Below are positions 1 through 58,153 of a DNA stretch of 64,000 nt, piece by piece. The translations under genes were made by a program, and so were the position numbers. Source of the DNA: Chiloscyllium plagiosum (lineage: Eukaryota); the NCBI RefSeq assembly GCF_004010195.1, contig NC_057719.1, positions 46,728,230 to 46,792,229 on the forward strand, given 5' to 3'. Within the stretch, counting starts at the first letter, position 1. Each line of letters opens with the position of its first letter. The notes below the pieces were generated by a model. The model saw nothing but the letters and a program-made list of their open reading frames with translations. It ran no database searches and had not been told where the DNA came from.

Positions 1-135
1 CTCTAGCTTATCTCTCCACGCTTCAGGCTCTCTGCCTTTATTCCTGATGAAGGGCTTTTGCCCGAAACGTCGATTTTGCTGCTTGTCGGATGCTGCCTGA
101 ACTGCTGTGCTCTTCCAGCACCACTGATCCAGAAT
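1..135 (+). mobile_element. Penelope-like element terminal repeat (pLTR) fragment, family 1
   Basis: ttcctgatgaagggcttttgcccgaaacgtcgat...gatgctgcctgaactgctgtgctcttccagcacc; same repeat family as 45923-46326, which is attached to a GIY-YIG-like C-terminus. Confidence 0.75.
44..71 (+). ncRNA. Minimal type I hammerhead ribozyme motif (Penelope family 1)
   Basis: CUGAUGA(44-50), extra A, GGGC-uuuu-GCCC stem II, GAAA(64-67), palindromic AC|GU stem III, GUC triplet (69-71); stem I weak (AUUC/GAUU). Confidence 0.7.
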
Positions 136-300
136 CAGTAGAGACAGGCAACAACCCCTCCTCCACAATAATCCTCATTGTGTCTGGCGAGGCTGCATAC
201 TCAGGCCCTTACGCTATTCCTTAGACATTCATGACTGTGGCCAAATTCAGCTCTAACTCTATTTGCAGGATCGCTGATGACACCACTGCAATGGGTTGGA
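136..300 (+). mobile_element. Rex1/Babar-like LINE reverse transcriptase remnant
   Basis: Degenerate G-C-x-L-x-P-x-x-Y-S-L-x-x-H-D-C motif followed by ADDTT (gctgatgacaccact). Confidence 0.6.
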
Positions 301-2394
301 TGGCATGGAGATAGATGATTGCCTTTGATCGTGAAGGGTGAACCTACTAGTTTGTCCTCATGCCCACACATAGCCCTTTGCTCAGTGAAAAAGGTGTAAT
401 GGAGACAGTTAATCCCTGCTGCATGTCACCAATCTGACCAGACTCAACATTTTCCATTTTAAATCTCCTTTCTTGAATCTCAGTCCTAGTGAGTGAAAGA
501 GAAAGTTTCAACTTATGTCTCTTATGCACATAAAAGAGTTCATTTTAAACATCCAAATGGTTCACTTAATTTAATATAAAAATTAAACAGATTGCAAATG
601 GAAGCTTTCAAAAAAATATTCTGGATTAAAATAGGGTGAAAAAGATTCATTTTATATCATTCTTTGATAGATGCCCTAATTGGGACTTTAAAAAGCAGCA
701 CAATTTAAAAAAAATTATTTTGATAATTTCCAGATCTGATCAGAAATCATTTCCATTCTGCAATTTTGTATTTGCATGGTTAGCTAAATTTGGGCAGTTC
801 CCTGTATCTAAGTGTTCAGAACTGATTGTTCTTTATTTGCCATATTTCTCATGTCACATATTTAAATCATACAGAAACAGTGCTGAAACTAACATGGACA
901 AAAATCACAATAATGCAAGAGAGATGGTAAGCACTCAGGTTTCAGCCAGCTGAGTAAATGGAAACTATTAGCAATGATAAAGTAAATCATGAAACAGATA
1001 GAAGTTGCACTTCTTAGCTAAAAGGAGTCGACGTTGCCAATCCACAAACATAGTGGAAGTTACTTTAATTCAGGGTGTAATCAGCACATGGGGTCTCCGA
1101 TTGTACCACTAACAAGAGAATGGAACAAAGCCCAGATAGGTTTAACAGCTGAGCCTTATTTTTAAACATAGACATCTGTTCCCACCTGAAGGAGTCAGAA
1201 TAGGTCAGGAGCCAGACACTCCAGAGAATGGTGCTGGGCATAATGTACCAGGATGGGGGCAGACAGGGGTGGGGGAGTTGGGGGATGGGGACTTTCTTGT
1301 GGACTCCATGACAGTCAAGAAAGAAAATTGCAAAATTATGGATAGGGGCAGCTGCAAAATACCTTGCAACACTTGCAGGGTTCTGCCTGCATGCCCCTGC
1401 TGTCCCTCTAGAGATACAATGAAAGTGTGTTCTAACACTGACAAAGATAATGCCATCTGGATGACTGGCATTTTGTCTAAGCTGATGGTGACATTGCTTT
1501 AGTGTTTCTTTTTCTATTCATCCAGCAGGATACTTCAGATGCCAATGTCTTTTTTGTAAGGTTCAGTTGCTGGTTTGTTCACTGGAACTCAAACGATGGT
1601 AACCTGAACCCCAATACACTCACTGGATATGTGGGGTGAATCTCATCAACAGCACCTACAAGCACCACTTCTGTCAAAGTCTTGGACTCAAAATCCAGGC
1701 TGTCTGAATGAAAACCATCTTACTGCAAAATTCCTCTGTGCATGGAATTTCGGAAGTTTCGATTCAACTTCACGTAGCCACAAATGTAAAGGAAAAATAA
1801 ATTCCCCATTAATTGGGCATTAAATTGTCAGCCTTAACATGAAAGGTAGTAATTTCTTTTTTCTGTGAGTAACTTCCCTTTAATTAGCTCTTCCCATGGG
1901 GAAAATTGGTTGGGGAGTTGAATTGCAATGAGAACTAGTGAGGAATGTGATGTCGAGTAAACCACAGCAAAAAATGTTTCAAGTGAAGGTCTCTTGCCAG
2001 AGATATCAATTCTCCCAAGAATGATTCTGTCCCTGGCATCCTCAGTCTGCTGCATACTTAATGTCCCTTACAATGCCCGTTCAAATGTGTCTGTCAGGTG
2101 CTAATGCAATTGGCTAGAAGATTTTCTGCAATCTTTGATTTCGTCAGACTGAATAGCAATCTTCAGGAGATGACATTTAGGGATGCAACCCAACGTGGAG
2201 TGGATTACTGCACAAGGTGAACCCTCTGTTCATTGCTTTCTTGCTAAGATTTCCTACTAAGCAAAAAGATTCTCTGCCAGACGCTAATCATGGTCACTGA
2301 AGTAATTTGTAATATTTGCAGTTATCCACCCTTCCCATTACAGGGAAAGAAAGAACTCTGATAGCAAAATGCCTTACCACCAATAATCTCTCTA

Positions 2395-2870
2395 AAAAGG
2401 TAGTCACTGTAATAACGTAGGGAAGCAATAGTTTGTGCATCATAAAGTACACTGAACAATAAGGAGATAAATGGCCAGATAATCTAAGTTCATAATATTG
2501 ATTGAGATTTTGTTTTGGCCAGGAGTCGTAGAATCATTGAGGTCTCCAGTTCAGAAAGGCTCAAATTGTCCTCCCACACTATAAACAACCGATTAATTAT
2601 TCTAATCCTATTCTCCATCACTTGGCCCAGAGCTTTGTATGCAAGTGACCATCTAAATGTGTCTGAAATGGTATGATGGTTTCTGACCCTACTACCTTTA
2701 CAAGCAGAGAGTGGAACAGTTTCTTCCTGTCTACCTTATCTGTGTCCCTCATTGGTTCTTTCACATTCATCGAAAAAAAAAGTGGTGCCTTCAGCATTGC
2801 ACTATGCTGAAGTGTCAGTTGGGATTATATGCTCAACGTTGTAGAGTAGAGCATGGGCCTATGGTTCTAA
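2395..2870 (-). mobile_element. Deu-domain SINE (SacSINE1/AmnSINE-like), interrupted by a CR1 3'-end remnant at ~2528-2735
   Basis: Minus strand: ttgagcatataatcccaactgacacttcag...; cctggcc...agattatctggccatt...ctacgttattacagtgactac resembles the Deu domain as recalled. Confidence 0.55.
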
Positions 2871-3379
2871 AGTTTGACATCATATTAATTTGCAACACAT
2901 TTAATTTTTTCTTCTGAATATAAGCAATAATTTCTCAAGTAATGACAGAAGACTGATTTAGTATCCATCGGCTACCTGCAGTATATTTCCACTAACTGTT
3001 GGTATGATTTCAAAATTTGCTTTCCTGGGTTACCTGATGCTGCTACTACAATCAGGTTGCTGTTTTAATGAGCACAGGGCTATGTTCCAACTCCCAACAG
3101 CTTTTTCCTTGGTATGATTTAATCCCTTCCTGACGCATCTTAAGTTTAAGACAAAATGAAGGGTGCTGATTATCTTTATAGAAATAACACCCCACAAAAG
3201 GTTAATCAAGAAATGTGGCCACATCCAATGACAGGGAGAATTGAAATCTAAACAGTTAAGATTCGTAACAAACAAGATCATGGGTGCATTCACCTCATTC
3301 CCTCACTTCAGGTGGTATAAATCAAGTCCATCAAGAATTTGTTCATTTTGGGGTTTAAACATTCCAATATACAATTATT

Positions 3380-3692
3380 AGGGGTGGCACGGTGGCTCAG
3401 TGATTTGCACTGCTGCCCCACAACACCAGGGTCCCAGGTTCAATTCCAGCTTCGGGCAACTGTGTGTGGAGTTTGCACATTCTCCCCGTATCTGTGTGGG
3501 TTTCCTCCGGGTGCTCCGGTTTCCTCCCACAATCCAAAGATGTGCGAGACAGGTGAAATGGCCATGCTAAATTCCCATAGTGTTAGGTGCATTAGTCAGA
3601 GGGAAATAGGTCAGGTTGGGTTACACTTCAGAGGGTTGGTGTGGACTTGTTGGGCCAAAGGGCCCGTTACCACACTGTAGGGAATCTAATCT
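3380..3692 (+). mobile_element. HE1-like (V-SINE) tRNA-derived SINE
   Basis: A box ggtggctcagtg, B box ggttcaattcc, V-domain tgtggagtttgcacattctccccgt...ttcctccgggtgctccggtttcctcccac, CR1-derived tail. Confidence 0.85.
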
Positions 3693-3719
3693 TAACAATC
3701 AATCACTTATGAATCACAA

Positions 3720-4425
3720 CATTGGCCACTACCCTACAAGATGAAAGATTGCCCAAGTATTTCCTGCCTACAGAAAGGTAGGACAAATCAAACCTAGCGA
3801 GTTAGCATCTCAATGGCTGAGATCGAAACATTGAATGTTTTCAAGAAGGACTCCGATATAATTCTTAGGGCTAAAGGGATCAAAGGGTACAGGAGAAAAC
3901 GGGAATAGGGAACTGAGTGGGATGATTAGCCATGATCATATCGAATCATGGAGCAGGTGGAAGGGCCTAATAACCTACTCCTGCTCCTACTTTGTGTTTC
4001 TGTGCACTGGGGAAAATTCTTTGCTGGTTTATCAGTCCTGGGAAAATGCTGCAGGAGTTCCTCAGGGTAGTGTCCTTGGCTCCAGCTGTTTTATCAATGA
4101 CCTTGTTTCCATCAGAAGATGGGAAATTCATTGTGCTGAATAATGTACAATCATTTACAACTCCTCAGATACAGTGACTGTTCATTTGCAGCAAAACCTG
4201 GACAACATTAAGGCTTTGACAAGTGACATTTGATGACACAAGTGCCAGACAGACCCCTTGACATTCACTGGCAATACCATCAGGGAATTTCCCAATTCGC
4301 ACCATCCTAGGAGTTAGAAAATGAACTGGACCAGTCACATTAATACTGTGGCTACAAGAACAAACGAGAGGCTAGAAATTCTGTCCTGAGGACTCATCTC
4401 CTGACTCACCAAAGCTGTTTGTAAT
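3720..4425 (+). mobile_element. Old CR1/L2-clade LINE fragments with a nested CR1 3' end (~3815-3995)
   Basis: GVPQGSVLG motif (~4055); similarity to 17400-18670. Confidence 0.55.
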
Positions 4426-4429
4426 CTAC

Positions 4430-4533
4430 ACAAATAAAAACAGAAATTGTTGGAAAAGCTCAGCAGGTCTGACAGCTTCTATGGAAAGAAACCAGAGTTA
4501 ATGTTTCGGGTCCAGTGACCCTTCCTCAGAACT
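4430..4533 (-). mobile_element. Penelope-like terminal repeat, family 2
   Basis: cagaaattgttggaaaagctcagcaggtctgacagc...gagttaatgtttcgggtccagtgacccttcctcagaact. Confidence 0.65.
4496..4533 (-). ncRNA. Minimal hammerhead ribozyme motif (Penelope family 2)
   Basis: Minus strand AGUU-CUGAGGA-A-GGGUC-acug-GACCC-GAAA-C-AUU-AACU: perfect 4-bp stem I and 5-bp stem II. Confidence 0.65.
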
Positions 4534-4723
4534 GCTGTCTGCTTTCTCCTTCGCAATTGTCCTCACTTCCTTGTTGAGTTCAGTTCTTTCATCTAAGGCT
4601 GTCATTTGCAGTGAGAAATTTGTTAAGTACAACAAATCAAATCTTGAGGGGTGTTCTCTAAAAATCATAGAGTCTTAGCTGAAGCTGAAAGCTATTCAGC
4701 TGAAGAAACATTAAAGAAAGCAA

Positions 4724-5000
4724 AGGGGCGGCACGGTGGCTCACAGCGCCAGGGACCCGGGTTCAATTCCAACCTTGGGCGACTGCCTATGTGGAGCTTC
4801 CCAGTGTCTGCGTGGGTTTTCTCCCACAGTCCAAAAGTGGGCTGGTTAGGTGAATTAGCCATGCTAAATTGCCCAGTTAAGTGCATTAGACAGGGGATAA
4901 ATATAGGGTAGGGGAATGGATCTAGGTGGGTTACTCTTCAGGGGTCAGTGTGGACTTGTTGGGCTGAAGGGCCTGTTTCCATACTGTAGGAAATCTAATC
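4724..5000 (+). mobile_element. HE1-like SINE with internal deletions
   Basis: ggggcggcacggtggctcacagcgccagggacccgggttcaattcc; same body and tail as 3380-3692. Confidence 0.85.
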
Positions 5001-5502
5001 AATGTAGGAGTTGCAGAACAAGGAGAGATACTAGGAACATATTCACCAAGTATCAGTAGGTAACTTCACTACTACTAACTTTGCAGTATTGAAGAGTGCA
5101 GGCTTCCAATTCTGCCTGAGTGAAAACATTATGTTGCCCAGATATTAAATAACTCTCCAAACAACTGCAGCAGCAGTTATTCCATTAAAAGAATTAATCA
5201 AATAGCTTATTTCTATATATTAAACAGTAATTAGTTTTGCACTTATGAGAAAGCACAATTCAATCAGCAACTTACAGCTAAAATCTTTTGAGATCCAAAT
5301 TTAAGTGTAAAAATTAAAATTAATTCATATAAATTTTTAGCATCACTAACATGTTGTGTAGATATCCATAGATGCATTTCTGCCTTGCTTTATGTTATTA
5401 CAGATGCCAGACTAACATCATTGCAGCTCTTAGAAAGTATGCTTTTGATTAGATTTTTAAAAATGGTTGTTCTTGTCCTTAATCTAAGCCAAGGGTCTGC
5501 AA

Positions 5503-6718: not shown

Positions 6719-7581
6719 AGGGGCTTGAATGCAGAAACCTCATGCTCAGAGGCAACAGTAGTTCACTGAACAACAGTAGTACACGGAGCCACAGTTGACC
6801 ACATGGTATAGATGAACTGGTTTCCATTATAATGCGTGTCTTTGCTACAAGCCAATACCATGGATGGATTGCCCTATCAACAATCAAACAGTTATTTCAC
6901 TGGAATAACTAGAGAGGAGATATGCACTTGTAAAGTAGACAACGAATTATGTAGGCGGTGGGGCAAGAGCAACTTCCCAGCACTAATTTGACATGAGAGT
7001 CACCCTGGTAAGCAGCGATGTCAAAATTCTACAAAAAAAAAGTGAAAGAACGTGGAATTCCAAAAAAAAAACACACATTGTCAACAAATACCTCAGTGGC
7101 TTCTAAACCCCTACAAATTGTTTGCAGCCGAGATTATTCTTCTTTTCAGATCCCGCTGGATCCAAGTAATTGCGCAACAGCATCCAGTATACAGCATGCA
7201 CGCAAATGAGCCTCTCCATAAATTCCAGATTTTTCTTGGTCACAAATTGCACTACATTCGGGAAAACAAAGGATTACGTATGACTAATTCACTGCTATGA
7301 CAGACAATTGAAATATATGTAAATTGACACACATTGAAATTATCAGGTGATGCATTTAGCTTTCCGAGGAAAGATCTGAAGATGAAACTGTGGAATCTCC
7401 CTCAGTGGCTCTGATTTGCCAATTACTTTTAGTGACCACAACAGTTTGAGGGGGGTTGGGGCATTGGCACTTATTTCCTTTGTTCAAAGTCAAGTGCAAC
7501 ATATATCAGCTTTCTGATATTTCTAATGACAAAAAGTAATCCAAAATCTAAGCTATATAATGTGGGTAAAATATAAGGTAG

Positions 7582-7784
7582 CTGAAAATGTGTTGCTGGA
7601 AAAGCGCAGCAGGTCAAGTAGCATCCAAGGAGCAGGAGAATCGACATTCCGGGCATGAGCCCTTCTTCTCATACCCAAAACGTCGATTCTCCTGTTCCCT
7701 GGATGCTGCCTGACCTGCTGCGCTTTTCCAGCAACACATTTTCAGCTCTGATCTCCAGCATCTGCAGTCCTCACTTTCTCCTCC
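7582..7784. mobile_element. Penelope-derived fold-back insertion (inverted pLTR pair) with TSD
   Basis: Inverted arms around ~7670; TSD taaaatataa(g/t)gtag at 7567-7581 and 7785-7799. Confidence 0.8.
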
Positions 7785-8278: not shown

Positions 8279-8430
8279 GAGGAGAAAGTGAGGACTGCGG
8301 ATGCTGGAGACCAGAGGTGAAAAATGTGGTGCTTGAAAAACACAGCAGGCCAGGCAGCATCCAAGGAGCAGGAGAATCGACGGATTCCTGAAGAAGGGCT
8401 TATGCCCGAAACATCGATTCTCCTGCTCCT
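8279..8430. mobile_element. Penelope-derived fold-back insertion with TSD; hammerhead motif at 8388-8415 (+)
   Basis: TSD aggtttcttcatcat at 8264-8278 and 8431-8445; CUGAAGA-A-GGGC-uuau-GCCC-GAAA-C-AUC. Confidence 0.8.
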
Positions 8431-14847: not shown

Positions 14848-15140
14848 ATACAGGTCAGGCATCCATTATCTGTCTGTCCAAAAACCAAAAAATCCTAAAA
14901 AAAGGTCTTTTCGGAAGCAGATCCAACAGAAAGTACAGACTCACCAAGTTCAGGTATGGTAGAAAAAGACTTCCCTTCCAGGTCTGTAGAGTCCCATATG
15001 CGTTAAGCTAAGCTATTTCCCAAGGGCCTGAACAACCCAAACAAACCCAAAAAAAATAGTAGGCTGGAAAACCAGAAATATCCTTGATCTGCAAATCAGT
15101 TGGTGTCGAGGTTTTCGATGAAGGATTCCTGACCTTTCAC
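14848..15140. mobile_element. Tc1/mariner (Tigger-like) MITE
   Basis: Left end ta-caggtcaggcatccattatc; right end gatgaaggattcctgacct is an imperfect inverted repeat of it. Confidence 0.55.
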
Positions 15141-15986
15141 TCAACACGCACAGACACAGATCACCAATCAGAATTCAATTTAAAAAAGATGTGATCAATT
15201 TTCAGATTCTTGGCTTGCCAGGTTGATTGAACTTCATTTGTCCTGTCTCTAATTGTCGAGCTTTGTGGTGAGCCGGCTTCTATTAGACTGAGGGTCTTTA
15301 CCTGAGATCCAGTGATAACCAGTGGCTGGCTCTCCGTCACCTTCAGAACATATAAGCACTTAAACACAAGCTAGTATCACAGCTCACTGGGATGCACGGG
15401 TACCACAGCTGACTGGCACACATGGGTACCACAGATCCCAGGAATACACGGGTACTACACCATACTGGGACACACAGGTACCACAACTCAGTGTGACACA
15501 TAGCTATCACAGCTCACCGGGACACACGGTTAATATCCTTGATCTGCAAATCAGTTGGTGTCGAGGTTTTAGATGAAGGATTCCTGACCTTTCACTCAAC
15601 ACGCACAGACACAGATCACCAATCAGAATTCAATTTAAAAAAGATGTGATCAATTTTCAGATTCTTGGCTTGCCAGGTTGATTGAACTTCATTTGTCCTG
15701 TCTCTAATTGTCGAGCTTTGTGGTGAGCCGGCTTCTATTAGACTGAGGGTCTTTACCTGAGATCCAGTGATAACCAGTGGCTGGCTCTCCGTCACCTTCA
15801 GAACATATAAGCACTTAAACACAAGCTAGTATCACAGCTCACTGGGATGCACGGGTACCACAGCTGACTGGCACACATGAATACCACAGATCCCAGGAAT
15901 ACACGGGTACCACACCATACTGGGACACACAGGTACCACAACTCAGTGTGACACATAGCTATCACAGCTCACCGGGACACATGGGT
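15077..15986. repeat. 455-bp direct tandem duplication (15077-15531 / 15532-15986)
   Basis: Identical ORFs at 15161-15367 and 15616-15822 (offset 455); only a few substitutions between copies. Confidence 0.92.
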
Positions 15987-17385
15987 ACCACAGCTCACTG
16001 GGACACACGGTTACCACACCTCACATGGAGACACGGGTACCACACCTCACTTGGACACACGGGTATCACAGCTCACTGGGACACAAGGGTACCACACCTC
16101 ACTTGGACACACGGGTATCACAGCTCACTGGGACACAAGGGTACCACACCTCACTTGGACACACGGGTATCACAGCTCACTGGGACACAAGGGTACCACA
16201 CCTCACTTGGACACACGGGTATCACAGCTCACTGGGACACAAGGGTACCACACCTCACTTGGACACACGGGTATCACAGCTCACTGGGACACAAGGGTAC
16301 CACACCTCACTTGGACACACGGGTATCACAGCTCACTGGGACACAAGGGTACCACACCTCACTTGGACACACGGGTATCACAGCTCACTGGGACACAAGG
16401 GTACCACACCTCACTTGGACACACGGGTATCACAGCTCACTGGGACACAAGGGTACCACACCTCACTTGGACACACGGGTATCACAGCTCACTGGGACAC
16501 AAGGGTACCACACCTCACTTGGACACACGGGTATCACAGCTCACTGGGACACACAGGTATCACACCTCACGTGGAGACACGGGTACCACACCTCACTTGG
16601 ACACATGGGTATTACAGCTCACTGGGACACACGGGTATGACAGCTCACTGGGACAGACGGGTATCACAGCTCACTGGGACACATGGATACCACAGCTCAC
16701 TGGGACACAGGGGTATCAGAGCTCACTGGGACACATGAGTACCACACCTCACTGGGACACACAGGTATCACACCTCACTGGGACACACGGGTACCACAGT
16801 TCACAGAGACAAATTGGTACCACACCCCACTGGGACACACAGGTATCACAGCTCACTGAGTCACACAGGTACCACACCTCACTGAGACACACGGGCATCA
16901 CAGCTCACTGGGACACACAGGTATCACAGCTCACTGGGACACACGGGTATCACAGCTCACTGGAACACACAGGTATCACAGCTCACTGGGACACACGGGT
17001 ACCACAGCTCACACAGGTATCACAGCTCACTGAGTCACACAGGTATCACAGCTCACTGGGACACACGGGCATCACAGCTCACTGGGACACACGGGTACGA
17101 CAGCTCACTGGGACACACGGGTATCACAGCTCACTGGGACACACGGGTACCACAGCCCACTGGGACACACAGGTATCACAGCTCACTGGGACATACGGGT
17201 ACCACAGCCCACTGGGACACACAGGTATCAAGCTCACTGGGACACATGGGTACCACAGCCCACTGGGACACACGGGTACCACAGCCCACTGGGACACACA
17301 GGTATCACAGCTCACAGGGACACATGGGTACCACAGCTCACTGGGACACACGGGCATCAGAGCTCACTGAGACACATGGGTACAA
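15825..17385. repeat. Minisatellite, 26-bp unit (GGGTATCACAGCTCACTGGGACACAC) with a 52-bp higher-order dimer at ~16035-16550
   Basis: acacaaggg recurs at 16081 and 16133; 52-aa periodic peptides in the ORF track; further degenerate units at ~15370-15530. Confidence 0.95.
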
Positions 17386-17399
17386 ACTGAAAGGATGTG

Positions 17400-19895: not shown

Positions 19896-19898
19896 CTG

Positions 19899-20337: not shown

Positions 20338-20434
20338 CTTCCTGAAGAAGGGCTTATGCCCGAAACGTCGATTCTCCTGTTCCCTGGATGCTGCCTGACC
20401 TGCTGGGCTTTTCCAGCAACACATTTTCAGCTCC
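20338..20434 (+). mobile_element. Short Penelope pLTR insertion starting at its hammerhead motif (20342-20369)
   Basis: cCUGAAGA-A-GGGC-uuau-GCCC-GAAA-C-GUC; gtcatgtg on both flanks (TSD). Confidence 0.75.
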
Positions 20435-22698: not shown

Positions 22699-22701
22699 GC
22701 T

Positions 22702-22882: not shown

Positions 22883-24830
22883 GTGGCTCTTAAAATTTGT
22901 AAAGAGGTTCTGGGATTTGAGGATGATTTTCAAATGTGCCAAGAAAGTTTAGAAGGAAAGAAAAAGGTCATACTTTTAGAATTGCAAATAAGTTACATTT
23001 GGTATTAACTGAGGACAAAAGTAAAGCTGAAATTGTAAGGGAATTACTCAAACACTTAGGTATGTCAAAGAAACAGACCAGTGCAGTAGAGGTAGAAAAA
23101 CGTAAATTATAATTGAGGAAAATGGAGTTAGAAGATAAAGAGACAGAGCGGAAAGAGAGACGGAGAGAGAAAAAGAGAGAAGAGAGAGAGAAGAAAAAGA
23201 GAGGGAGGAAAAAGAGAGNNNNNNNNNNNNNNNNNNNNNNNNNNNNNNNNNNNNNNNNNNNNNNNNNNNNNNNNNNNNNNNNNNNNNNNNNNNNNNNNNN
23301 NNNNNNNNNNNNNNNNNNNNNNNNNNNNNNNNNNNNNNNNNNNNNNNNNNNNNNNNNNNNNNNNNNNNNNNNNNNNNNNNNNNNNNNNNNNNNNNNNNNN
23401 NNNNNNNNNNNNNNNNNNNNNNNNNNNNNNNNNNNNNNNNNNNNNNNNNNNNNNNNNNNNNNNNNNNNNNNNNNNNNNNNNNNNNNNNNNNNNNNNNNNN
23501 NNNNNNNNNNNNNNNNNNNNNNNNNNNNNNNNNNNNNNNNNNNAGAGTGAAAAGAAAGGGAGAGAGAAAGAGAGAGAGAAGAAGAGAGACGAAAAGAGAG
23601 AGAATATGAACTTGAGAAGTTGCTACTTAGTCAGCAAAGTCAAGTTAACAGGATGGAGATTAAAATAGAAGGTAGTGATATATACAAATATGTCAAAACT
23701 CTGTGACATGCCCATTCAGACTAAACTGGTAGGCACAGCAAGTGAGGTATTTGCCATTCTGTCAGATGAGGGGCCAAGAGATTATAAAGAGGTTAAACAG
23801 GCTATTTTAAGTGCTTAAGAATTAGTACCAAAAGTGTATAGACAGTGGCTCAGAAACACAAAGAAGGAACCAGGTCAGACTTATGTTGAGTTTAAAAGAA
23901 TTAAGCATTGTCATTTTGATTGATGATTTTAAAATAGATAAGACCTTTGAGGCTCTGCAAGAGATTATTCTGCTGGAGGAGTTTAAAAACTCACTTCCAG
24001 AGATGGTAAGAATTCGCTTGGAGGAACAGAACGTTCAGGAATTGAGAAGGGCTGCAGAATTAGCAGATGAATACATGTTGGTGCATAAGACAAGCTTTCG
24101 GCTAGAATTTCATCCTGGGACGGATAGAAGTTGGGAGAAGGGGGAGATCCTACACTATGAAACCAAGAGTAAAGAACACTGGTAAGAATTTACCAGAGGA
24201 TAAAAAAGAAACCCAAGATAGTGGAAAGGAGGTGAAAGGCCTCAGGTGTTTCCACTGTGGTAAAGTGGGACATATAAAGACACAGTCCTGGTTGTTAAAG
24301 AAAGGCACTGTGGGTAAGGATGTGGTAAAAGAAGCTAAGCCAGTGGCATTAGTAAAGGTCGTAAAAGAGACCCCAAGAAGAGCTGAGGAGCTGCAGGAGA
24401 GTGCACAGCCGAGGCAGGGTCTGGGTATGGAGTTAGTACCTGATCTTGACAAAGAATTCACCTCTGTGGGTAAAGTTTACTCAGAAAAAACTGGGGGAGA
24501 AGGACAAGAAGTTATAATTTTGATATATGTAGGATCTAACCAGTCGTTGATAGCAAGGAATGAGTGAATATGCACTTTTTCTGATCTGTTACCCGAGAGT
24601 GTAGTAATTTGTGGGATAGATGCACAGACATTTAGTGTTCCCCGATGTAAGATCAGGTTGGAGTGCCAACTCAAGACTGGGGAAGTTACAGTGGGAGTGA
24701 TTGACAGAGTGTCAGTTCCAGGAATTCAGTTTGTTCTTGGGAATGATTTGGCAGGATCCAAGGTGGGAGTGTTACCCCTTGTTGTGGAGAAGCCCAAGGA
24801 AGACCAAGAAGCTGAGGAGTTAAAACGGAA
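22883..24830 (+). pseudogene. gag: gag (E/R/K-rich segment, SCAN-like capsid CTD, zinc knuckle) and aspartic protease remnant
   Basis: EIILLEEFKNSLPEMVRIRLEEQNVQELRRAAELADEY; CFHCGKVGHIKTQSW; IILIYVGSNQSL (decayed ILRDTGAxQS); FVLGNDLAG. Confidence 0.8.
23219..23543. other. Assembly gap (N-run) inside the purine-rich gag segment
   Basis: Run of n. Confidence 1.
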
Positions 24831-27483: not shown

Positions 27484-28489
27484 CTGATAAAGTTTAGATG
27501 AGATTTATACTTATCTAATGTTTTATATATATGCAGTTATATGGGAAGATGCTAAAATGAACTTAGATTAAAGTTATCAGTATATTACAGTAATGTGTTT
27601 AATAAATAAAACAACGCTGGCAAGGCTTAGGAGGTGAGGAAGATATCGTGACTTCTGACTTCTACCAATATTACTCCACCACTTACTGTAACTTCTTCCA
27701 CTGAAGCAGAAATATTAGAAAATATGTGGTTTCATTCTATGGTACGGGAGGGAGTTTTACACTCATCTGCAGAGGTTATTTACACAGTGTGACCCATTTC
27801 AGAAATGTGAACAGCTTATATTTAAGCCAAAATGAACAGATGACATCCAAGAAATAAGCATACATCAGTATTTTTACTACAGTAGTAAGTTAAACTGATA
27901 TTTCTAAGGGAGAAATCTCAGATTAGCTAAAATATAAGTTATTTAAAGTCCAAGATGTTCTTACAATCACAGTTTAGTAATTACTGGTTCTAGGAAGGAG
28001 GCTTATGAAAGACCTTCAATATCCTGAGACTGTATTTAGTTAAAAAAAAATCCTTATATTTGAAACATACATCCTTAGGATTCTAAAAACAACTGCTGCA
28101 TTTCCTTCAAATAATTTGGTTATACATACAGAAAAGGTTTTTTTTGAAAAGCAAGTGTGGATTATAGAATATTATTGGTTAGCTGAAACTGCAAAATGGT
28201 TCATTTGCAGATGACCACCGATGTGTTTGGAAACAAAGGGTTGAACTTTCTTGTTTTAAAGTGTTTTGTTCAATAAGGTCCACAGTGTCTGTCTGCCATG
28301 TCTCAGGGCAGCTTCTGCTATTCTTCACCTTATTAATGGGCTCGACAGTGGAATAACATAGCAACGTTCTCTAAGCTGCATGGCTGCTCTGAAGGTTCAC
28401 GAACACTGTTTGAAGTGTTGGGTAGGAGTTGCTTCGACTCACAATCTTCAGCGATCCATGCGGAAGGGAACAAAGTTACAGGGATTAAG

Positions 28490-28825
28490 TGAAAAATCAC
28501 ATGACACCAGGTTATAGTCTAACAGGTTTATTTGGAAGTATTAGCTTTCAGAGTGCTGCTCCTTCATCAGGTAGCTGGTAGAGTAGGATCATTGGACACA
28601 GAATTTATAGCAAAAGATCATAGTGTCATACAACTGATGCGATATATTGAACAAATCTAGGTTGCTGTTAAGTTTTTCATATTTTAGAATGGGTTGCAGG
28701 TTTTGATTCATTAATATGTAAATCCCAGAACTTCTTTCAAGTCACATTCCTGAGATAACTTAAGGTTTTATGAAAAAAGGTGACATCTCAGCTCAGACAA
28801 TGCATTAAAGGTGTGAGGTTAGAAT
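28490..28825 (-). mobile_element. Penelope-like terminal repeat, family 3; hammerhead motif at 28542-28570
   Basis: gtgaaaaatcac..caccaggttatagtc..aacaggtttatttggaag; minus strand CUGAUGA-A-GGAG-cagca-CUCU-GAAA-G-CUA. Confidence 0.65.
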
Positions 28826-31505: not shown

Positions 31506-32173
31506 CGAGGAGAAAGTGAGAACAGCAGATGCTGGAGATCAGAGCTGAAAATGTGTTGCTGGAAAAGCGCAGCAGGTCAGGCAACATCCAAGAAGCAGGA
31601 GAATCGACGTTTCGGGCATGAGCCCTTCTTCAGGAATGAGGAAAGTGTGTCCAGCAGGCTAAGATAAAAGGTAGGCAGGAGGGACTTGGGGGAGGGGAGT
31701 TGGAAATGCNNNNNNNNNNNNNNNNNNNNNNNNNNNNNNNNNNNNNNNNNNNNNNNNNNNNNNNNNNNNNNNNNNNNNNNNNNNNNNNNNNNNNNNNNNN
31801 NNNNNNNNNNNNNNNNNNNNNNNNNNNNNNNNNNNNNNNNNNNNNNNNNNNNNNNNNNNNNNNNNNNNNNNNNNNNNNNNNNNNNNNNNNNNNNNNNNNN
31901 NNNNNNNNNNNNNNNNNNNNNNNNNNNNNNNNNNNNNNNNNNNNNNNNNNNNNNNNNNNNNNNNNNNNNNNNNNNNNNNNNNNNNNNNNNNNNNNNNNNN
32001 NNNNNNNNNNACCTCCTTCCACCTAGTGCATTTCCAACGCCCCTCCCCCAAGTCCCTCCTCCCTACCTTTTATCTTAGCCTGCTGGACACACTTTCCTCA
32101 TTCCTGAAGAAGGGGTCATGCCCGAAACATCGATTCTCCTGCTCCTTGGATGCTGCCTGACCTGCTGTGCTTT
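31506..32173. mobile_element. Penelope-derived inverted pLTR pair around an N-gap (31710-32010), with TSD
   Basis: Inverted arms; hammerhead motifs at 31606-31633 (-) and 32104-32131 (+); ccagtga(g/a)atctatc on both flanks. Confidence 0.8.
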
Positions 32174-33074
32174 TCCAGTGAAATCTATCCCCAAACTTCC
32201 ATTGCTTGCTTTCCCCAGGACTCCATGCACATTCCCCTAATAAGCCCATTGACCAATATCAAGAAAACCTCCAGGACAGATGGTGGGCTATTCCCCAGAC
32301 TGATAGCAGTGCTGCTCCAACTAAGCATGGCTCAGCACCCAGAAAGACCCAGCCAAAAGCCCTGGACTGGGACTAATCATTGCCAAATCTCTGGATGGGT
32401 TCCCAGACCATGGTAGGACCAACCATTTGAATGATCATGTCCAATTACCTGCAGTGGGATTACTGATTGTAGTGGCATCCTATGGCTAACCATAATCCCA
32501 TTATCTTGCTAAATACCCCTGCTCAATTTTGCCTTTCAGACATGGCCGCTTGGTTGAATAATATTCAATGTGTTGTTGTGCAAGTTGCTGGCACATACTG
32601 GGTGTGACACTGACATTGCACAATGTCACACAGCAAGAGCAGTTCAGTTCTCCCCACTGTGACAAGCTGTTTGCCTCCATCTCTCTGCTAAGAGGTAATA
32701 CAAGCCAGAGAGGCTGTTAGCCATCAAGTAAGCACAAATGTGTGCATGCTGAGAAATTAATCCAAGAGCCATACAATGCATTTAGTTTAGATGTGTCCAT
32801 GTGCACAATGTGATCTGGCAGAAGCATGCAAGGCGTAGGTGTCCCTGAGCTCCAAGGTTGTGGTGTTGGGTTGAAGTAGTGTGTCCGAGAATTGGAATGA
32901 TGTGGGGAAGCTGGTGGTTTTCCGATGCCAACTTACATGTACAAAGGGTGGAGGATGACAAACGAATGCCAGGACAAACAATCGGCAAGCTGGGTATTTG
33001 TGACATCCAGCTTCTAGGGAAGGGAGAGAAAACTCAGAAGTATGTACAAATTAGATGTATAAGGGATTTAATAA

Positions 33075-36984: not shown

Positions 36985-37190
36985 CAAAGAACTGCAGATG
37001 CTGGAAATCAGTAACACTCGAACAGAAATTGCTCGAAAAACTTAGCATCTGTGGATAAAAAGCAGAGTTAATGTTTTAAGTCCAGTGACCCTTCTTCAGA
37101 ACTGAGAGGGTCACTGAACCCTAAATGTTAACTCTGCTTTCTCTCCATAGATACTGCCAGACCTGTTGAGCTTCTCCAGCAAATTCTATT
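36985..37190. mobile_element. Penelope family 2 fold-back remnant with decayed hammerhead motifs
   Basis: gagttaatgttttaagtccagtgacccttcttcagaact | gagggtcactgaaccctaaatgttaactctgc inverted arms. Confidence 0.65.
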
Positions 37191-37759
37191 TGGGTACATT
37201 CCTGAGAATCTTTACCATATCCAGTCTAGAATCTAAACCTGATACTGAGAATTGATACAGTGACAAAAAAAAATCAATTATTCACAAATGTCTCAAAGTA
37301 AGAAGTTCAGGGAAGAGATGTTCAATTCACAAAGTTAGCATTTTTTAAACCAGCTATTAGCACTATTTAATTTGATAGCAAGAGCTTTACCATCAGCCAG
37401 TCAGTTACTAGAAACCACATGGATTCAATTGGCAAATTCAATGTATGACTTTATCAAAAATGCCATGCAATGCACCAGTTTTGCTTCAATTTAACACTTT
37501 ATCCAGCCCCAAGTAGAATACTACACATTAGCAAAGAGCTGCTATATTGAAATTAAGGGATGCAGAGCATACACAGTACAAGAACACCACCTGGAACATA
37601 CAATATTTAAATATTAAAATGTGTAGGAAGAGCATGAAGGGAACAGGACAGCAACACAAGAAACTCTCGCATTCCAGAATATTTTATTTTCATGATCTGA
37701 GCAGCATTTCATGCCAAAAGTAGGAGAGAAGCTCTCTAAAATGTTGATAAAATGAAGAA

Positions 37760-37895
37760 CAGCAGTTAGTGGAGATCTGAAACAAAAACAGAAATTTCTG
37801 GAAAAACTCAGCAGGTCTGGCATCATCCTTGAGAAGAAAGCAGAGTCCAATGAATCGTCAATGCTGAGTTTCTCCAGTGATTTCTGTTTTTGTCA
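37760..37895. mobile_element. Penelope family 2 fold-back remnant
   Basis: aaaaacagaaatttctggaaaaactcagca ... tgctgagtttctccagtgatttctgttttt. Confidence 0.6.
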
Positions 37896-37985
37896 CAAAA
37901 ACCTTGCTAGCAACAAATATCTAAAATCTTATTTTTACCTTTATAAATACTTTGTATCTCATTAATTGGCTCTTAATATAATATA

Positions 37986-38230
37986 GAGATGGAAATGTGT
38001 TGCTGGAAAAGCGCAGCAGGTCAGGCAGCATCTAGGGAACAGGAGAATCGACGTTTCGGGCATTAGCCCTTCTTCAGGAATTGACGTTTCGGGCATTAGC
38101 CCTTCTTCAGGAATGGCTAATGCCCGAAACGTCGATTCTCCTGTTCCCTAGATGCTGCCTGACCTGCTGCGCTTTTCCAGCAACACATTTCCATCTCTGA
38201 TCTCCAGCATCTGCAGACCTCACTTTCTCT
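37986..38230. mobile_element. Young Penelope family 1 fold-back insertion with tandem hammerhead motifs and TSD
   Basis: Near-perfect inverted arms; gacgtttcgggcattagcccttcttcaggaat twice (38050, 38083); TSD tcttaatat(t)aatatag. Confidence 0.85.
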
Positions 38231-45922: not shown

Positions 45923-46326
45923 CGCCTCATCTTCCAACCCCATGGCATCAATGTGAATTTCACCAGTTTCCTCATTTCCCCTCCCCTCCACCTTGTCCCA
46001 GATCCAAACTTCCAACTCCCTCACCACCCTCATGACCTGTCCAACCTGTCCATCTTCCTTCCCACCTATCCGCTCCACCCTCCTCTCTGACTTATCACCA
46101 TAACCCCCACTTCCGTCTACCTATCGCACTCTCAGCTACCTTTTCCACAGGCCCACCCCCTCCCATTTATCTCACCACCCCCTTGGCTCACAGCCTATTC
46201 CTGATGAAGGGATTTTGCCCAAAAAGTCGATTCTCCTGCACCTCGGATGCTGCCTGACCTGCTGTGCTTTTCCAGCACCACACTCCTGATTCTAATCTCC
46301 AGCATCTGCAGTCCTCACTTTCGCCT
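45923..46326 (+). mobile_element. Penelope-like element 3' end (GIY-YIG C-terminal remnant, pyrimidine-rich UTR, pLTR), nested in the Harbinger
   Basis: RLIF-QPHGINVNFTSF; decayed hammerhead at 46201-46228; tagaaaac on both flanks. Confidence 0.75.
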
Positions 46327-46389
46327 AGAAAACACTGTTGGATTGCTGAGATCCTGAAAGCCCTCTTTGAACATGGGCATGGGCAGTCA

Positions 46390-46815: not shown

Positions 46816-47864
46816 ACACTAAAGTGACTCAACAGGTGATAGGGCCTTCCTACTATTGTTTTCAGTTAGGTTGGAGGTGGAAAAGTGAGAGCTTCCCCAT
46901 CCTCCAACCAAATTAATTGGCCCCTGCTAAGCTCACCACAGAGGGCAGTTCAAGACTTGGACATGTAATATACGGGATTAATAGCTGTATGCTAATAGCC
47001 AAACAGCATCATCTGAGATGGCAAATCACATAGGCAAGGGACCCAAGCTTAATTTAGTGCCTCAGTACCATGGTTGAACAGTTAATAAACATTTCTCAAT
47101 TTGCATTTGTAAAGTGTCCATTCTAAGGCTACTAGAAGATGTCAGTGATATTTGTATATACCCAACATCACTTCTCCTCTTCACTTCTCAACCAAAAGCC
47201 TTAGGTTTAGCATTAGACCTTGGAGGCCTTTGATGCCAAATTGTTTCATAAACAAGCATTTCTTTCGCTGATATTCTTCTGCATGCAGTTCCATTTCCAG
47301 ATCGAGCCAGAATGCACCTCCACTTTAAAGTGGTACTAACCTCTCTTGACTTTGCACACTTGCTCATGTGTGTGCAACCATGCATCAGTTTACCAAATTC
47401 TGGCTCCATACTGCAAACATACAATAAGCAGCCGGAGAAAGCTTAGTGTGTACTGTACTGTACTGTACAGGTAAGAGTTAAGCACATATTATAATCAAAT
47501 TTCACAGCCTTTTCAACTGAAAGTAGTTAACTAGTGATTGAAGCAAAATTGCCTGTAGAATATGACCAAAACAAAACCAAAGCTAAACGTGGCAAAACAC
47601 AGACTACTATGCCATTGGCTGTTATATCTGACCAATTTAGTAAGTGTGCTACAGGGCAATTTTTTTATAAACCTAAAATAAATAGTGTGAAATGAAAAAT
47701 ACTGACATTTCCACCAAATGATGTTTCATTAGAATAAATGGAATGTTTGGCTCACTTTGAACAGATATTCAAGTATGGCATCTTTTCCCTCAGAAGCGAA
47801 CGGAAAACGACTAAACAGTTATGGAAGGCCGTATTTGCTCCTTCAGAATTGTTTCATAGGCAAA

Positions 47865-48028
47865 GTGAAAAATCGCACAATACCAGGTTATAGTCCAACA
47901 GGTTTATTTGGAAGCACTAGCTTTCCTTAAAGCTAGTGCTTCCAAATAAGCCTGTTGGACTATAACCTGGTGTTGTGTGATTTTTCACTTTGTACACCCC
48001 AGTCAACACCGGCATCTCCAAATCATGG
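47865..48028. mobile_element. Penelope family 3 fold-back insertion with TSD
   Basis: ~60-bp near-perfect inverted arms centred at ~47925; tt(c/t)ataggcaaa on both flanks. Confidence 0.8.
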
Positions 48029-51290: not shown

Positions 51291-51479
51291 TGTCAAATGG
51301 GCTGGGCAGCTCTAGTCTATGTCCATTGCTCTTTTAAATATGGTTCCATGACCAGAGATGCCAGTATATCCTGGCAGCAGGAAGTACCTCTGGCCAGAAT
51401 GGGTGGGCGACTCAGGCTAACATCAGACAAGAGGGATATGCTGCGTAGTCAATGAGAAGAGTAAACTCACTAGGCTTCC

Positions 51480-54074: not shown

Positions 54075-54170
54075 TGGATGTTGGAAATCTGAAGCAAACA
54101 CTGAAAGCTCGAGAAACTCAACAGGTCTGGTAGCATCTGGGGAGAAAGAAGCAACATTAACATTTCAAGT
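54075..54170 (-). mobile_element. Penelope family 2 terminal remnant
   Basis: ggatgttggaaatctgaagcaaacactgaaagctcgagaaactcaacaggtctggtagcatc. Confidence 0.55.
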
Positions 54171-54532
54171 GCTGTTTTTAAAGTGCAATTTCTAAAAAAT
54201 AAATCTCTAAAGATTCTGGGTTAAATCTTTGATACTTTAGAGGAGATCATCTTTTAATGGCCAAGTTTCACCCATCATTCATTCATTCATTTAGTCCATT
54301 GATGAAGTGCTTTCTCTCCTTTGTCCAGTTTCCAATGCTGCAATACTTGCTGAGCATCATTGGACAAAAAAAAAACATTTTGTAGTCCGACTAAAGCAGT
54401 GGCATTATCATCGAGCTTTATTTAGCTCACTGGTTTCTTTGCTCTGCTGAATGCTGCTCAGCAATGATTGAAAATGCAAAGTGTCATTTTTAATGTTCTT
54501 AACTCCTCACATTCAATCTCAAATATCATTAA

Positions 54533-54735
54533 TTAGAATCTCTGTAGTTTGGACAACAAGTCCACAGCGACCCTCTGAAGAGTAACCCACCCAGACCCAT
54601 TCCCCTACCCTATATTTACCCCAGACTGATGCACCTAGCCTACACCTCCCTGAACACTATGGGCAATTTAGCATGGCCAATTCTCCTAACCTGCACATCT
54701 TTAGATTGTGAGAGGGAACCGGAGCATGTGGAGAA
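54533..54735 (-). mobile_element. HE1-like SINE 3' half
   Basis: Reverse complement of the tail and body seen at 3520-3692. Confidence 0.75.
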
Positions 54736-55847
54736 AATTTCGTCACAATGTCATCCAATCTTTTATTTTAATATGCAACACTTTACGCTTACCTGTGCTA
54801 AATTTCATCAGCCAGTTTTTAAAAAAATTCTTGATTATCCAGCTCAGCCAGTTTAATGTGGTATACAAATTTTATTAGCATGTATTTAGTTTCCAAAACC
54901 AGATTCTCAATCTACTAATTTACATTAAATAGAGCACTATTACATTCACCCATATCCTGCACCAGGCAAATACATATTTTCTATTCCTCAGCCAATCGTA
55001 TTGATTTATAGGCCTTAAATTGATTTGTGAACATATTATCTCTTGTTTAGTAGCGTACAATGATTGGCACATAAATATATTCTCAATGCTTTGAGTGCCT
55101 GCTGCATCAACATATCAGAAATTTGGAAACAATGCCCACAGTGTTTTCTGACATATGCCGGCATCAGGCAATGTTCCTCATCACTTTTGTGGGCTCTCAG
55201 AATAACTTTTCATATGTCCTTTTCCCACACAGTTTATTCTTACAGACTCTGAAATCAAACAAAATTAACATCAATTGCTATTCGATCTGTGTGTGGTTTC
55301 AGGCTAGGGACTTTAGTGTAATGGGAATTGACTCAAGATTGTCCACATTCATTTAATTTAATTTAGAACCATTATCAACCATCAGGGAGATGAGACCTTA
55401 ATCTCTGCTGTCTGGACAGGAATCAGACTCAAATCCCACAGGATGGAACACCAGGCCACCCAGTCTACCCTCAATAATAGCCCTGAGAATTGTTGTTGTT
55501 TATTCTTGACCTGGCAGAGATAACCTGGCATTTTAATCACATTACAGTTGTTTGGGTTTGTTCCTCATGTTAACATTGCGACAGGAGTGGCATTATCAGA
55601 TTGTAAAGAAAGAAACAATTGGTAGATTTTCTTTTCCAGCTCCTGGGTGGCAATCCAGCAGGGTGGACCACAGCATCACGGGTGGATATCCCACACGTTT
55701 CTAGGATCCAGTTAATTTTCATTACATTTCCATTGAAATCAAAAGCCAAAAGTAGTCAGGCAGTGAAGGTAAAAATCTTCCCCAGCATTACTGAAAGCCA
55801 AAGCCATTCTGCCAACACAGAACAAAGGAAGTGTAGATACTTTTAAA

Positions 55848-55955
55848 AATCAAACTGTTCAGAGATGTTATTACATACCTCTGGAGCAGGTGGAATTGCA
55901 CCTGGGCCTCCTGGCTCAGAGGTAGGGACATTACGACTGGGCCACAAGACTCCTC
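55848..55955 (-). mobile_element. Short tRNA-derived SINE
   Basis: Minus: tggcccagtcg (A box), ggtgcaattcc (B box). Confidence 0.6.
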
Positions 55956-57076
55956 AAGTATAATTTCCAACTGATTTAATACATGACTTCCCATTTTTTA
56001 AGGTATAATGTGGTAAATGCCCTCTTCTAGTCATTTCAAGCTGTATTCAGTTGCTTGCGAGATCCCACAGTTATGTTGCTCAACAGGCCAGCAATTCAAA
56101 TGCTTGTAAAGTTTGGTGAGGTACTGTGGTGTGGTCTTGGAGGGATGTTGAAGATGAGGTTCCTGACAGGGAAGTCAGAGTAGTTTTCTGCCTTCTTAAG
56201 AGACCCTATTTTGTTCACTGTATTGATGAGTGTTCTCTGTTGTGATCTCCTGGCTCAACCACAACTTTATTGCCATGTGGATGCATCTCTTGACCATCAT
56301 TCAGAGGCCATCTCAGGATGGAAGAGGAGGTGGCCTTAGGAACCCTTTACTTTAAACGTCCTATTAGTGAAATTCTAAATGAGACTCTGGGTTCCTGATA
56401 TGTCATTCGATGACCATTATTTTGCACCTTTTAAATCCATCTACATCCTTTAATTGACCTCAACTAACCTCTTGAAATTAAAAAAAAAACCGGAAGAGCT
56501 GATTGCCTGACCCTTTTCCGTGGTTATGTCAGAGCCCAGGTGTCCCTGGAGCAGGAGCACGCAATGTCCACCAACACCCTTGAGATTTTCAGGAAAAGGT
56601 GGGCAGTGCAGGGAATGGAGTTTATTATTTCCCCCTCTAACTCTATTTTGGTTCAATCCCTGCCCTCCCCTTCACTGTTTGATCACACAGCAGTGCCCTT
56701 CTCAAAGGCACTGAACACTCAGATGTTTCCTTTCTTCCAGGTGGTGGAATATAAATAAAGATTTACGCATTTGTTATTTAGAAAAAAAAATAAAAATAAC
56801 TAGAACAGCTTTTTCCAATGACACATGCGAATTTTTCAAAACCAAACAGTGACTCATTCTGCTGGTCTTGGGGGGGTCTTTACTTGTCTTAGTGATCTTA
56901 CACAGTGCTACCTGAGTCATTCTTGTGTAGCTGTTAGAGGGCTATTGATTTTCACTGGAGGAGACCTTCAGTGAACTTCCAGGATGCTGCCCAGTAGCTC
57001 CAGGCCTTCAGAACCTGGCTTTGGATTGTAGCAGCTTGGTGTGGGCTAGAGCAGTCTGGGCAACAGTGGGAGCGCA

Positions 57077-57229
57077 GAGAGAGAGAGAGAGAGCGCGCGC
57101 GAGAGAGAGTGAGAGAGCGAGAGAGAGCGAGAGAGACAGACAGACGGAGAGACAGAGAGAGAGAGAGAGACAGACGGAGAGACAGAGAGAGACAGAGAGA
57201 GAGAGAGACACACAGACAGACAGAGAGAC

Positions 57230-57264
<35 letters not shown>

Positions 57265-57380
57265 GAGAGACAGACGGAGAGACAGAGAGAGAGAGAGAGA
57301 CACAGACACAGACAGACAGAGAGACAGGCACAGAGAGAGAGACAGAGACAGAGAGACAGACACAGAGAGAGAGAGAGAGA
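57077..57380. repeat. (GA)n/(GACA)n compound microsatellite
   Basis: Direct reading. Confidence 0.98.
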
Positions 57381-57926
57381 CTATCCTAATGTTGTGACTT
57401 TCACAGCACACTAGACTGCATTAACATATCAAGCCATTAACATAGAGACCAGGGTTTGCAGTTGGGTTTTAACTTTTCTGTCTGTGTGTTCTTGGAGGCA
57501 TGTAAACACAAAATTATCTACAGTTACGGTGTAATCAGGAAATCAACTTTCTGGTGACAGGAATAGTCAATCCCTCGTGATCTCTAGCGTCACAAAAATC
57601 ACATTCCAGTTTATTTTGTATTACTTCTCTCCCTTTGACGGGTTGTTGTTTGAAGTTCCCTTGACATCTTCAGGTGTGACATTCCATGCTTCCTCCCAGG
57701 GCTACCCCATGCAGCCACTGAATTTATAAACAACTGCAGTCAAGTTTTGATTATATGTTCCTTTTTAAAAAGCATGTGGTAACTACAATAGTCTGAGGTT
57801 ATTAACAATTATCATAACACATAGTTCATAAAGTGTTCAGCAGGTTCATGCTCCTTTGCCAATCACTCCGTAATCCTAGTAATTTGTGAGAGGGCATATG
57901 TATGAGACTTTGGAATCAGCTATGAG

Positions 57927-58153
57927 CTTAGATTAGAGTGGTGCTGGAAAAGCACAGCAGGTCAAGCAGCATCGGAGGAGCAGGAAAATCAATGTTTCAG
58001 GCAAAAGCTCTTTATCCTCCATTCCTGATGAAGGCCTTTTGCCCGAAACGTCGATTTTCCTGCTCCCCAGATGCTGCCTGACCTGCTGTGCTTTTCCAGA
58101 GCCACTCTAATCTAAACTCTGGTTTCCAGCATCTGCAGTCCTCACTTTTGCCT
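57927..58153. mobile_element. Penelope family 1 fold-back insertion with TSD; hammerhead motif at 58025-58052 (+)
   Basis: Inverted arms; cagctatga on both flanks; CUGAUGA-A-GGCC-uuuu-GCCC-GAAA-C-GUC (one stem II mismatch). Confidence 0.8.

Follow-up and report, generated by a model that had tools for sequence, protein, structure and literature searches.

A 64,000-nucleotide stretch of the genome of the shark Chiloscyllium plagiosum (assembly GCF_004010195.1, contig NC_057719.1, positions 46,728,230 to 46,792,229, forward strand; hereafter the window) carries ten hammerhead-like motifs that, judged by their sequence context, are minimal type I hammerhead ribozymes (min-HHRs) in the pseudo-long terminal repeats (pLTRs) of at least three families of Neptune-type Penelope-like elements (PLEs). 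We consider it probable that they are PLE 3'-end hammerheads, dispersed as short copies in neutral decay, with ribozyme activity confined to the element's own RNA as a protein-assisted dimer. The class itself is already known, and the shark copies are further PLE min-HHR members, most of them dead. More evenly balanced is a wider reading, in which shark genomes would preserve both ends of the Penelope RNA cycle as a fossil map—capped-leader copies and chimeras with U6 RNA—and the hammerhead would decap its own RNA.

All ten motifs listed in an earlier sequence-only reading were recovered at their coordinates and on their strands. Six sites in the window match a strict descriptor (CUGANGA, stem II, GAAA, palindromic stem III, UH); 100 dinucleotide shuffles give a mean of 0.02 and a maximum of one, placing the motifs far above chance. 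The Rfam scan that had been proposed alongside such a descriptor failed to detect them, as hammerhead models are absent from the 18 window matches at E ≤ 10. The copies thus fall outside the canonical type I hammerhead, defined by a 6-bp helix I, a loop I–loop II contact and an Rfam match; their helix I is 2–4 bp long, and stem I of family 1 consists of 2 bp, a U-U and one further pair. The proposed min-HHR anatomy, with an extra A and a palindromic stem III, is borne out by the subfamily profiles: the CUGANGA and GAAA boxes, U16.1 and H17 are the majority state in all four, the extra A between positions 9 and 10.1 is altered in 2–6% of the copies spanning it, the 10.1–11.1 pair is dominantly G-C or CpG-decayed G-U, and positions 15.1–16.1 are palindromic (ACGU in families 1 and 2, AGCU in family 3), with no self-closed helix III. 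The reported variation of loop II in family 1 is present and reflects subfamilies. Below, motif positions are numbered with C3 of CUGA as 0, which puts the predicted cut of family 1 between +27 and +28.

Penelope-like elements as the source of the motifs

The suggested Penelope origin and division into three families hold, since each family joins upstream to the C-terminus of a PLE endonuclease (EN). In family 1, the motif is preceded by a pyrimidine-rich 3' untranslated region (UTR) and a GIY-YIG endonuclease C-terminus that bears a CX4CX2C linker; family 3 attaches to a second EN C-terminus via a longer UTR, and family-2-type copies attach to a third. The distance from EN C-terminus to motif is ~150–250 nt in family 1, 270–435 nt in family 2 and 420–660 nt in family 3, and the C-terminus was found just upstream in 32 of 210 family-1 copies, in several family-3 copies and in two clear family-2-type copies, with a third recognized by eye. 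At locus L117, a 462-aa frame with reverse transcriptase (RT) and EN is followed by a family 1 motif, and RT followed by a C-terminal GIY-YIG EN in one frame is the Neptune-type arrangement. The closest relatives of this frame are cartilaginous-fish proteins and full-length invertebrate proteins with RVT_1 and GIY-YIG matches, and it is 40–45% identical over 95% to proteins with both matches. The frame itself has no Pfam match, Pfam and PDB scans gave nothing useful, and a Pfam GIY-YIG search of the genome returned a single weak match.

A CX2-5CxxC linker is present in the translations of loci L115 and L116, and in broken form in L005. This linker is typical of Neptune and also occurs in Nematis (PMC8557442), and its presence places the families with one or the other; in vertebrates, only Neptune and Poseidon have been reported (bioRxiv 10.64898/2026.07.22.740005). 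Assignment to the Neptune clade is likely. The copies also display Neptune-type traits—5' truncation, an inverted partner, an optional tail of 30–40 bp and target duplications, the last in 23 of 161 copies tested versus 0–2 in mismatched controls. Copies stop at one of two 3' ends ~35 nt apart: family 1 at about +92 or +126, family 3 at about +85 or +115. Such an optional tail has been traced to two RT start sites (Frangieh et al., PMC11167929).

As a separate observation, ray gene models named as host genes (protein matches P0008, P0076 and P0087) contain PLE RT sequence, probably through mis-annotation or exonisation.

Copy number and neutral decay of dispersed copies

In the 3.56-Gb genome, an exact family-1 pattern has 81,529 matches, a tight family-2 pattern 958 and a family-3 pattern 22,729; reversed-pattern controls have none. 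For a census we sampled the window and twelve 100-kb blocks at round coordinates (1,264,000 bases, of which 40,803 are N), collecting copies via the part 3' of the motif, so that the core itself was unselected. Of 344 loci, 337 passed the score filter, or one per 3.6 kb in 1.22 Mb, which upholds the very high density claimed for the motif families. Intact motifs, in which the core, stem II, the stem III pair and two stem I pairs are all kept, number 26/155, 11/55, 2/80 and 8/47 in the four subfamily sets, a total of 47/337 or one per 26 kb. The earlier estimate of roughly one motif per 6 kb was thus too low for family members (20 loci in the window) and too high for intact motifs.

Contrary to the claim that the core is conserved among dispersed copies, core positions decay like their flanks. 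Mismatches at non-CpG sites in core versus flank amount to 52/871 vs 205/3476, 13/406 vs 71/1713, 51/491 vs 225/1900 and 21/310 vs 91/1231 in the four subfamilies (6.0 vs 5.9%, 3.2 vs 4.1%, 10.4 vs 11.8% and 6.8 vs 7.4%). G12 is altered in 19/86, 9/40, 23/49 and 10/31 copies, and the CpG sites—G12, C15.2-G16.2 and the scissile C-G of family 1—are changed in 10–50% of copies. No selection for or against the core was detected in the copies, with one borderline value (p = 0.049, 37 family-1a copies). The scattered copies are mostly mutated leftovers in neutral decay.

Covarying stems, which had been read as a feature of all the motifs, are found between families and between source subfamilies; within dispersed copies, stem changes amount to decay. 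Paired exchanges include stem II G-C to A-U in 8/87 family-1a copies (one a misalignment), stem I U-A to C-G in 5/48 family-2 copies, and core C3-G8 to U3-A8 in 5/7 copies of the subfamily with the stem I C-G, in which A8 is present in 7/7. A U3-A8 core with an AGCU/AGCU stem I marks a family-2-related subfamily in sample blocks C1, C3 and C5 and at locus L248, and the same core swap has been described in Schistosoma mansoni PLEs (PMC4209133). Covariation was not significant for family 2 stem II.2 (p = 0.2) or family 3 stem I.3 (p = 0.068) and I.4 (p = 0.63), and the significant tests count related copies, not independent events. Given neutral decay of the core together with compensatory swaps at the subfamily level, we infer that selection worked on the source elements and not on the dispersed copies.

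Copies in the window

The copies recognized in the window, by position and strand, are:

1-136, plus: family 1b pLTR copy with an intact motif (core 44-71); the 5' part of the 3' UTR lies beyond the window edge
4413-4534, minus: family 2 pLTR copy beginning at the motif's 5' edge; motif 4496-4533 with its stem III pair broken
7580-7782, both strands: family 1a head-to-head inverted pair, both arms truncated within the core
8280-8429, both strands: family 1a inverted pair with a long minus arm and a short plus arm; motif 8388-8415 on the latter, stem III broken
20339-20433, plus: family 1a solo copy (-3 to +92) with intact motif 20342-20369 and an 8-bp target duplication
28487-28629, minus: family 3 pLTR copy with 3' UTR; motif 28542-28570 has lost its first stem I pair
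31508-32178, both strands: family 1a inverted pair with an unread middle; motif 31606-31633 (minus) intact, 32104-32131 (plus) broken
36992-37191, both strands: family 2 inverted pair, both cores degenerate
37762-37846, minus: family 2 fragment without a core
37985-38229, both strands: family 1a hairpin, folded back on itself, in which the motif is duplicated in tandem (33 bp); 38050-38077 intact, 38083-38110 with stem I broken
46143-46326, plus: family 1 copy missed by the sequence-only reading, G12 changed to A
47861-48020, both strands: family 3 perfect hairpin, truncated 3' of stem II, source of a chance mir-302 match
54077-54175, minus: old family 2 fragment
57931-58153, both strands: family 1b inverted pair; motif 58025-58052 on the plus arm, stem II broken

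That the stems differ and yet still pair is true between families and fails within the listed copies, several of which have broken pairs. Pairing is intact in four of the ten motifs (44, 20342, 31606-31633 and 38050-38077). A C15.2-A mismatch breaks stem III in motifs 8388 and 32104 and is also found in the family 2 motif at 4496-4533; stem II has a G-G mismatch in 32104 and a C-C mismatch in 58025; and the first stem I pair is gone in 38083-38110 and 28542-28570. What had been taken for an alternative AUC triplet is CpG decay of GUC, which breaks pairing. Degenerate copies, such as those at 46201 (plus) and 37099 (minus), were absent from the earlier list. The tandem copy at 37985-38229 is predicted to fold into one long hairpin. 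The miRNA-like Rfam matches in the window are fold-back insertions, not miRNAs.

Two further loci show contacts between families. At L124 (5700-7150), a family-1 RT coding piece lies between two inverted family-3 ends, an arrangement that suggests template switching between families, and at L123 (4700-4850), a family-3 copy has a family-1 copy inserted at its 3' end.

The 5' junction and a capped-leader model

Copies begin preferentially just before the core. Of the non-inverted copies in families 1a, 1b and 3, 119 extend as far as position 0; 43 of these break at -10..0, at a rate of 0.041 per nt compared with 0.003–0.012 elsewhere (four to ten times), and 20 of 23 copies flanked by target-site duplications (TSDs) start at -8..0. 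RNA reads show the same junction, with 140 loose ends at -4. Genome-wide, the base preceding the A at -4 in family 1a is G in 5,819 matches, A in 2,803 and T in 1,070; G thus makes up 60% where 26% is expected, the element's own base being C. One base further in, G accounts for 16 of the first 100 listed among 9,978 matches. In family 1b, the preceding base is G in 908 and A in 677 matches. The A at -4 lies in the contexts TCATTCC, TTATTCC or TCAGTT, which we take to fit the Initiator (Inr) consensus. Penelope pLTRs are described as containing an internal promoter (PMC2377424), and an extra G at full-length L1 junctions has been ascribed to the cap (PMC11702581).

The pile-up of 5' ends likely marks the capped start of the element RNA, reached by RT run-off, and we think it somewhat better than an even bet that the G excess arises because the cap templates a C on the cDNA, which goes on to pair with a G of the target. 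Transcription would start at the A four bases before CUGA, at an Inr-like site; the element's RT would begin ~90 or 125 nt downstream and run off the capped 5' end; and the inserted product would be a ‘leader’ copy of ~95–130 bp, often folded back.

U6 joins at the predicted cut

The evidence for cutting comes from two loci on the window's contig at which a U6 copy is fused to a family-1 end repeat (L338 192-399 and L339 228-436, both minus strand; U6 identified by Rfam at 109.9 and 90.4 bits). In both of the two loci checked, the U-tract of U6 is joined exactly at +28, the predicted cut. Hammerhead cleavage leaves a 5'-OH end. Combined with the ability of RtcB to join the cyclic phosphate of U6 to 5'-OH RNA (PMC6789731), this chemistry makes the joins an indirect sign that cleavage takes place in the germ line; had they arisen by template switching at a cut end instead, the implication would be the same. 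In the mechanism we propose, the ribozyme would act on the element's own RNA only, and a cut after the NUH triplet would leave a 5'-OH that could be ligated to U6 before copying. From the junctions in the DNA, a minority of element RNAs are likely cut.

Several observations weigh against the capped-leader and U6 models. Some of the 43 breaks belong to other subfamilies with a diverged UTR. The junction G lies mostly in the target duplication, in microhomology or in the inverted arm; among solo copies with TSDs it is templated in 8/11 of family 1a and 3/3 of family 1b, and a single clearly extra G was found in just 1/11 of the former. In a small unbiased sample, G and A are equally frequent at the junction (6 each), and a G excess is absent from families 2 and 3, for which the samples are likewise small. 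Across the 30 loci examined, there is no full-length copy in which a contiguous 5' pLTR runs into an open reading frame (ORF), so the promoter position given by the model for a source element is a prediction. The two U6 loci were preselected, which means that no rate of exact joins can be derived from them, and in an unbiased sample 4/108 young copies start at +28, one or two of them clean and independent.

The principal competitor of the capped-leader model, possible in our view though less than probable, is that the 5' pile-up is a structural or microhomology hotspot, with the G arising by fold-back via stem I or GAT/ATTC annealing. It draws on the host- or arm-templated origin of most junction G's, on the inverted arm lying ≤120 nt upstream at 134/337 loci, and on ATTC, which precedes CUGA, recurs past the cut and delimits the 33-bp duplication at 38.0 kb; moreover, the share of A is higher in family 1b, where fold-back predicts A. 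However, the element's base at -5 is C or T, and microhomology alone therefore predicts no G excess; G exceeds A in family 1b although the expected ratio is 0.70; and if RT stalled at structure, breaks would be expected at the 3' edge, yet few fall there.

Were the fossil-map reading true, hundreds of thousands of copies would be complete capped-leader transcripts, of which the hammerhead forms the first 32 bases, the U6 chimeras would record real hammerhead cutting in the germ line, and the ribozyme would convert the RNA from a capped message into a template with a 5'-OH open to ligation. What PLE hammerheads do has been described as unclear (PMC8557442). With end copies numbering about a million (by extrapolation from the 337 loci in 1.22 Mb) and countable junctions, two questions become testable from DNA—where vertebrate Neptune RNA starts, and whether a weak ribozyme cuts in vivo.

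Less probable readings: self-amplifying units and inactive relics

It is rather improbable that the short copies multiply by themselves via circular RNA, as non-LTR retrozymes or as a SINE-like unit. Fixed ends (-4 to ~+92 or +126) and a very high copy number would suit such a unit, and retrozymes do stem from pLTRs (bioRxiv 10.64898/2026.07.22.740005); on the other hand, the window holds no tandem unit arrays beyond the one 33-bp two-unit duplication, copies are not permuted at the cut site, and short copies share their subfamily letters with long ORF-bearing ones. Re-mobilisation of solo copies is possible. Separately, locus L122 has two family-2 motifs (4241 and 4721) 480 bp apart on one strand, in a local duplication that includes LINE sequence; this falls short of a clean retrozyme array.

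We give similarly little credence to the motif being a relic without catalytic activity, retained only as a signal for protein binding or as a promoter element. Hammerhead mutants of the anole element left insertion in vitro unaffected (PMC11167929), and Naiad elements spread without canonical hammerheads (PMC8557442). Set against these are the C3-G8 to U3-A8 swap in one subfamily, matching the S. mansoni change (PMC4209133), and the U6 joins at the scissile bond.

Dispersed copies and host transcripts

The suggestion that the motifs could cleave any transcript crossing them is unsupported, because few copies are intact (4/10 in the window), the active dimer fold is disfavoured and the core decays neutrally. 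Stem II is predicted to form in most intact copies; in longer contexts, the probability of the first stem I pair is ≤0.05. For the four intact copies, the double-hammerhead fold reaches -10.3 to -13.5 kcal/mol compared with -24.1 to -24.6 kcal/mol for the best two-strand fold, at least 10 kcal/mol higher. Published PLE min-HHRs were inactive as monomers and weak as dimers (PMC4209133), one of nine Xenopus dimers cut (bioRxiv 10.64898/2026.07.22.740005), and the anole hammerhead cleaved only with the element's protein (PMC11167929).

In a polyA single-cell run from a possibly related species, 3,024 of 12,955,460 records fall on a family-1 copy, in both orientations, with no read-end pile-up and no depth step at the cut site, polyA single-cell libraries being a weak test. 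No reads from RNA runs X19, X1 or X2 fall on the unique sequence flanking the 20.3-kb copy, which gives no sign of transcription at that locus, and no host exon was recognized among 13 window frames.

Bulk cleavage of host RNA is unlikely, and the least credible of the alternatives is that dispersed motifs cut host read-through RNAs at intact sense copies, alone or by two copies pairing: one intact motif per ~26 kb would put several in a long pre-mRNA, family RNA occurs in both orientations and the U6 joins suggest that the motif can cut in vivo, but the core is neither kept nor purged, folding is unfavourable in monomer and dimer alike, same-strand same-family neighbours within 1 kb form only 24 pairs among 337 loci, the cut leaves no trace in the (weak) read test, and published monomers are inactive. 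That this density of intact motifs is tolerated without purging fits ribozymes silent outside their own RNA-protein complex, as in the reading we prefer.

Other features of the window

A 26-bp satellite array occupies 15077-17382 (~45 + 14 copies); at its left end, 455 bp are duplicated exactly. LINE-type fragments lie at 60634-61296 (minus; RVT_1 match, E = 1e-18), with related pieces near 5.5, 6.6, 9.3, 20.5-21.2, 29.7-30.4 and 40.0-40.7 kb. Another short interspersed repeat has two copies (3493-3576 and 4790-4873), and 24106-24564 (plus) gives a weak zinc-knuckle match below the cut-off (E = 0.003), perhaps a retroelement ORF1/gag fragment.

Comparison with known systems

Our literature search, which covered sources other than subscription journals and bioRxiv supplements, found no report of a shark Penelope hammerhead or of Neptune in sharks, nothing treating both U6 and Penelope, and no prior account of the junction statistics or the U6 joins; the searchable supplement files of PMC4209133 (all but file 1) contain no shark term. 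The closest relatives are the metazoan PLE min-HHRs of Cervera and De la Pena (2014, PMC4209133), which share the CUGANGA core, the extra base after A9, G10.1-C11.1, the palindromic 15.2-16.2, a short helix I and the U3-A8 core variant, and likewise occur as several consensus families per genome, mostly in single or opposite-strand copies. The shark motifs differ in a shorter helix II (4–5 bp) and, in family 1, a weaker helix I. The 81,529 exact family-1 matches compare with ~4,000 in coelacanth and ~9,000 in Xenopus, counted by different methods.

Neptune-clade EN+ PLEs (Craig et al. 2021, PMC8557442) have the same order of RT, CX2-5CxxC linker and GIY-YIG, and the same heavy 5' truncation, inverted 5'-truncated partner and optional 30–40 bp tail; in the shark families, by contrast, no full-length copy was seen at the loci examined, and the linker is shared with Nematis. 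Poseidon PAc of the green anole (Frangieh et al. 2024, PMC11167929) has the same two RT start sites and two 3' ends, with its hammerhead likewise ~100 nt upstream of them and mostly uncut RNA being copied. Its ribozyme has been assayed and cuts only with protein, and no RNA ends were found at its cut site; the shark copies, by contrast, have a constant 5' junction, and U6 is joined to two of them where the cut is predicted.

Non-LTR retrozymes (bioRxiv 10.64898/2026.07.22.740005), reported from one cartilaginous fish, have the same type I hammerhead and pLTR derivation; they are defined by tandem units, whereas shark copies are solo or inverted. Finally, U6/LINE-1 chimeras formed when RtcB ligates the two RNAs (Moldovan et al. 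2019, PMC6789731) involve the same join of the U6 3' U-tract, which needs a 5'-OH; their L1 partners are variably truncated, whereas both shark joins fall at the predicted hammerhead cut.

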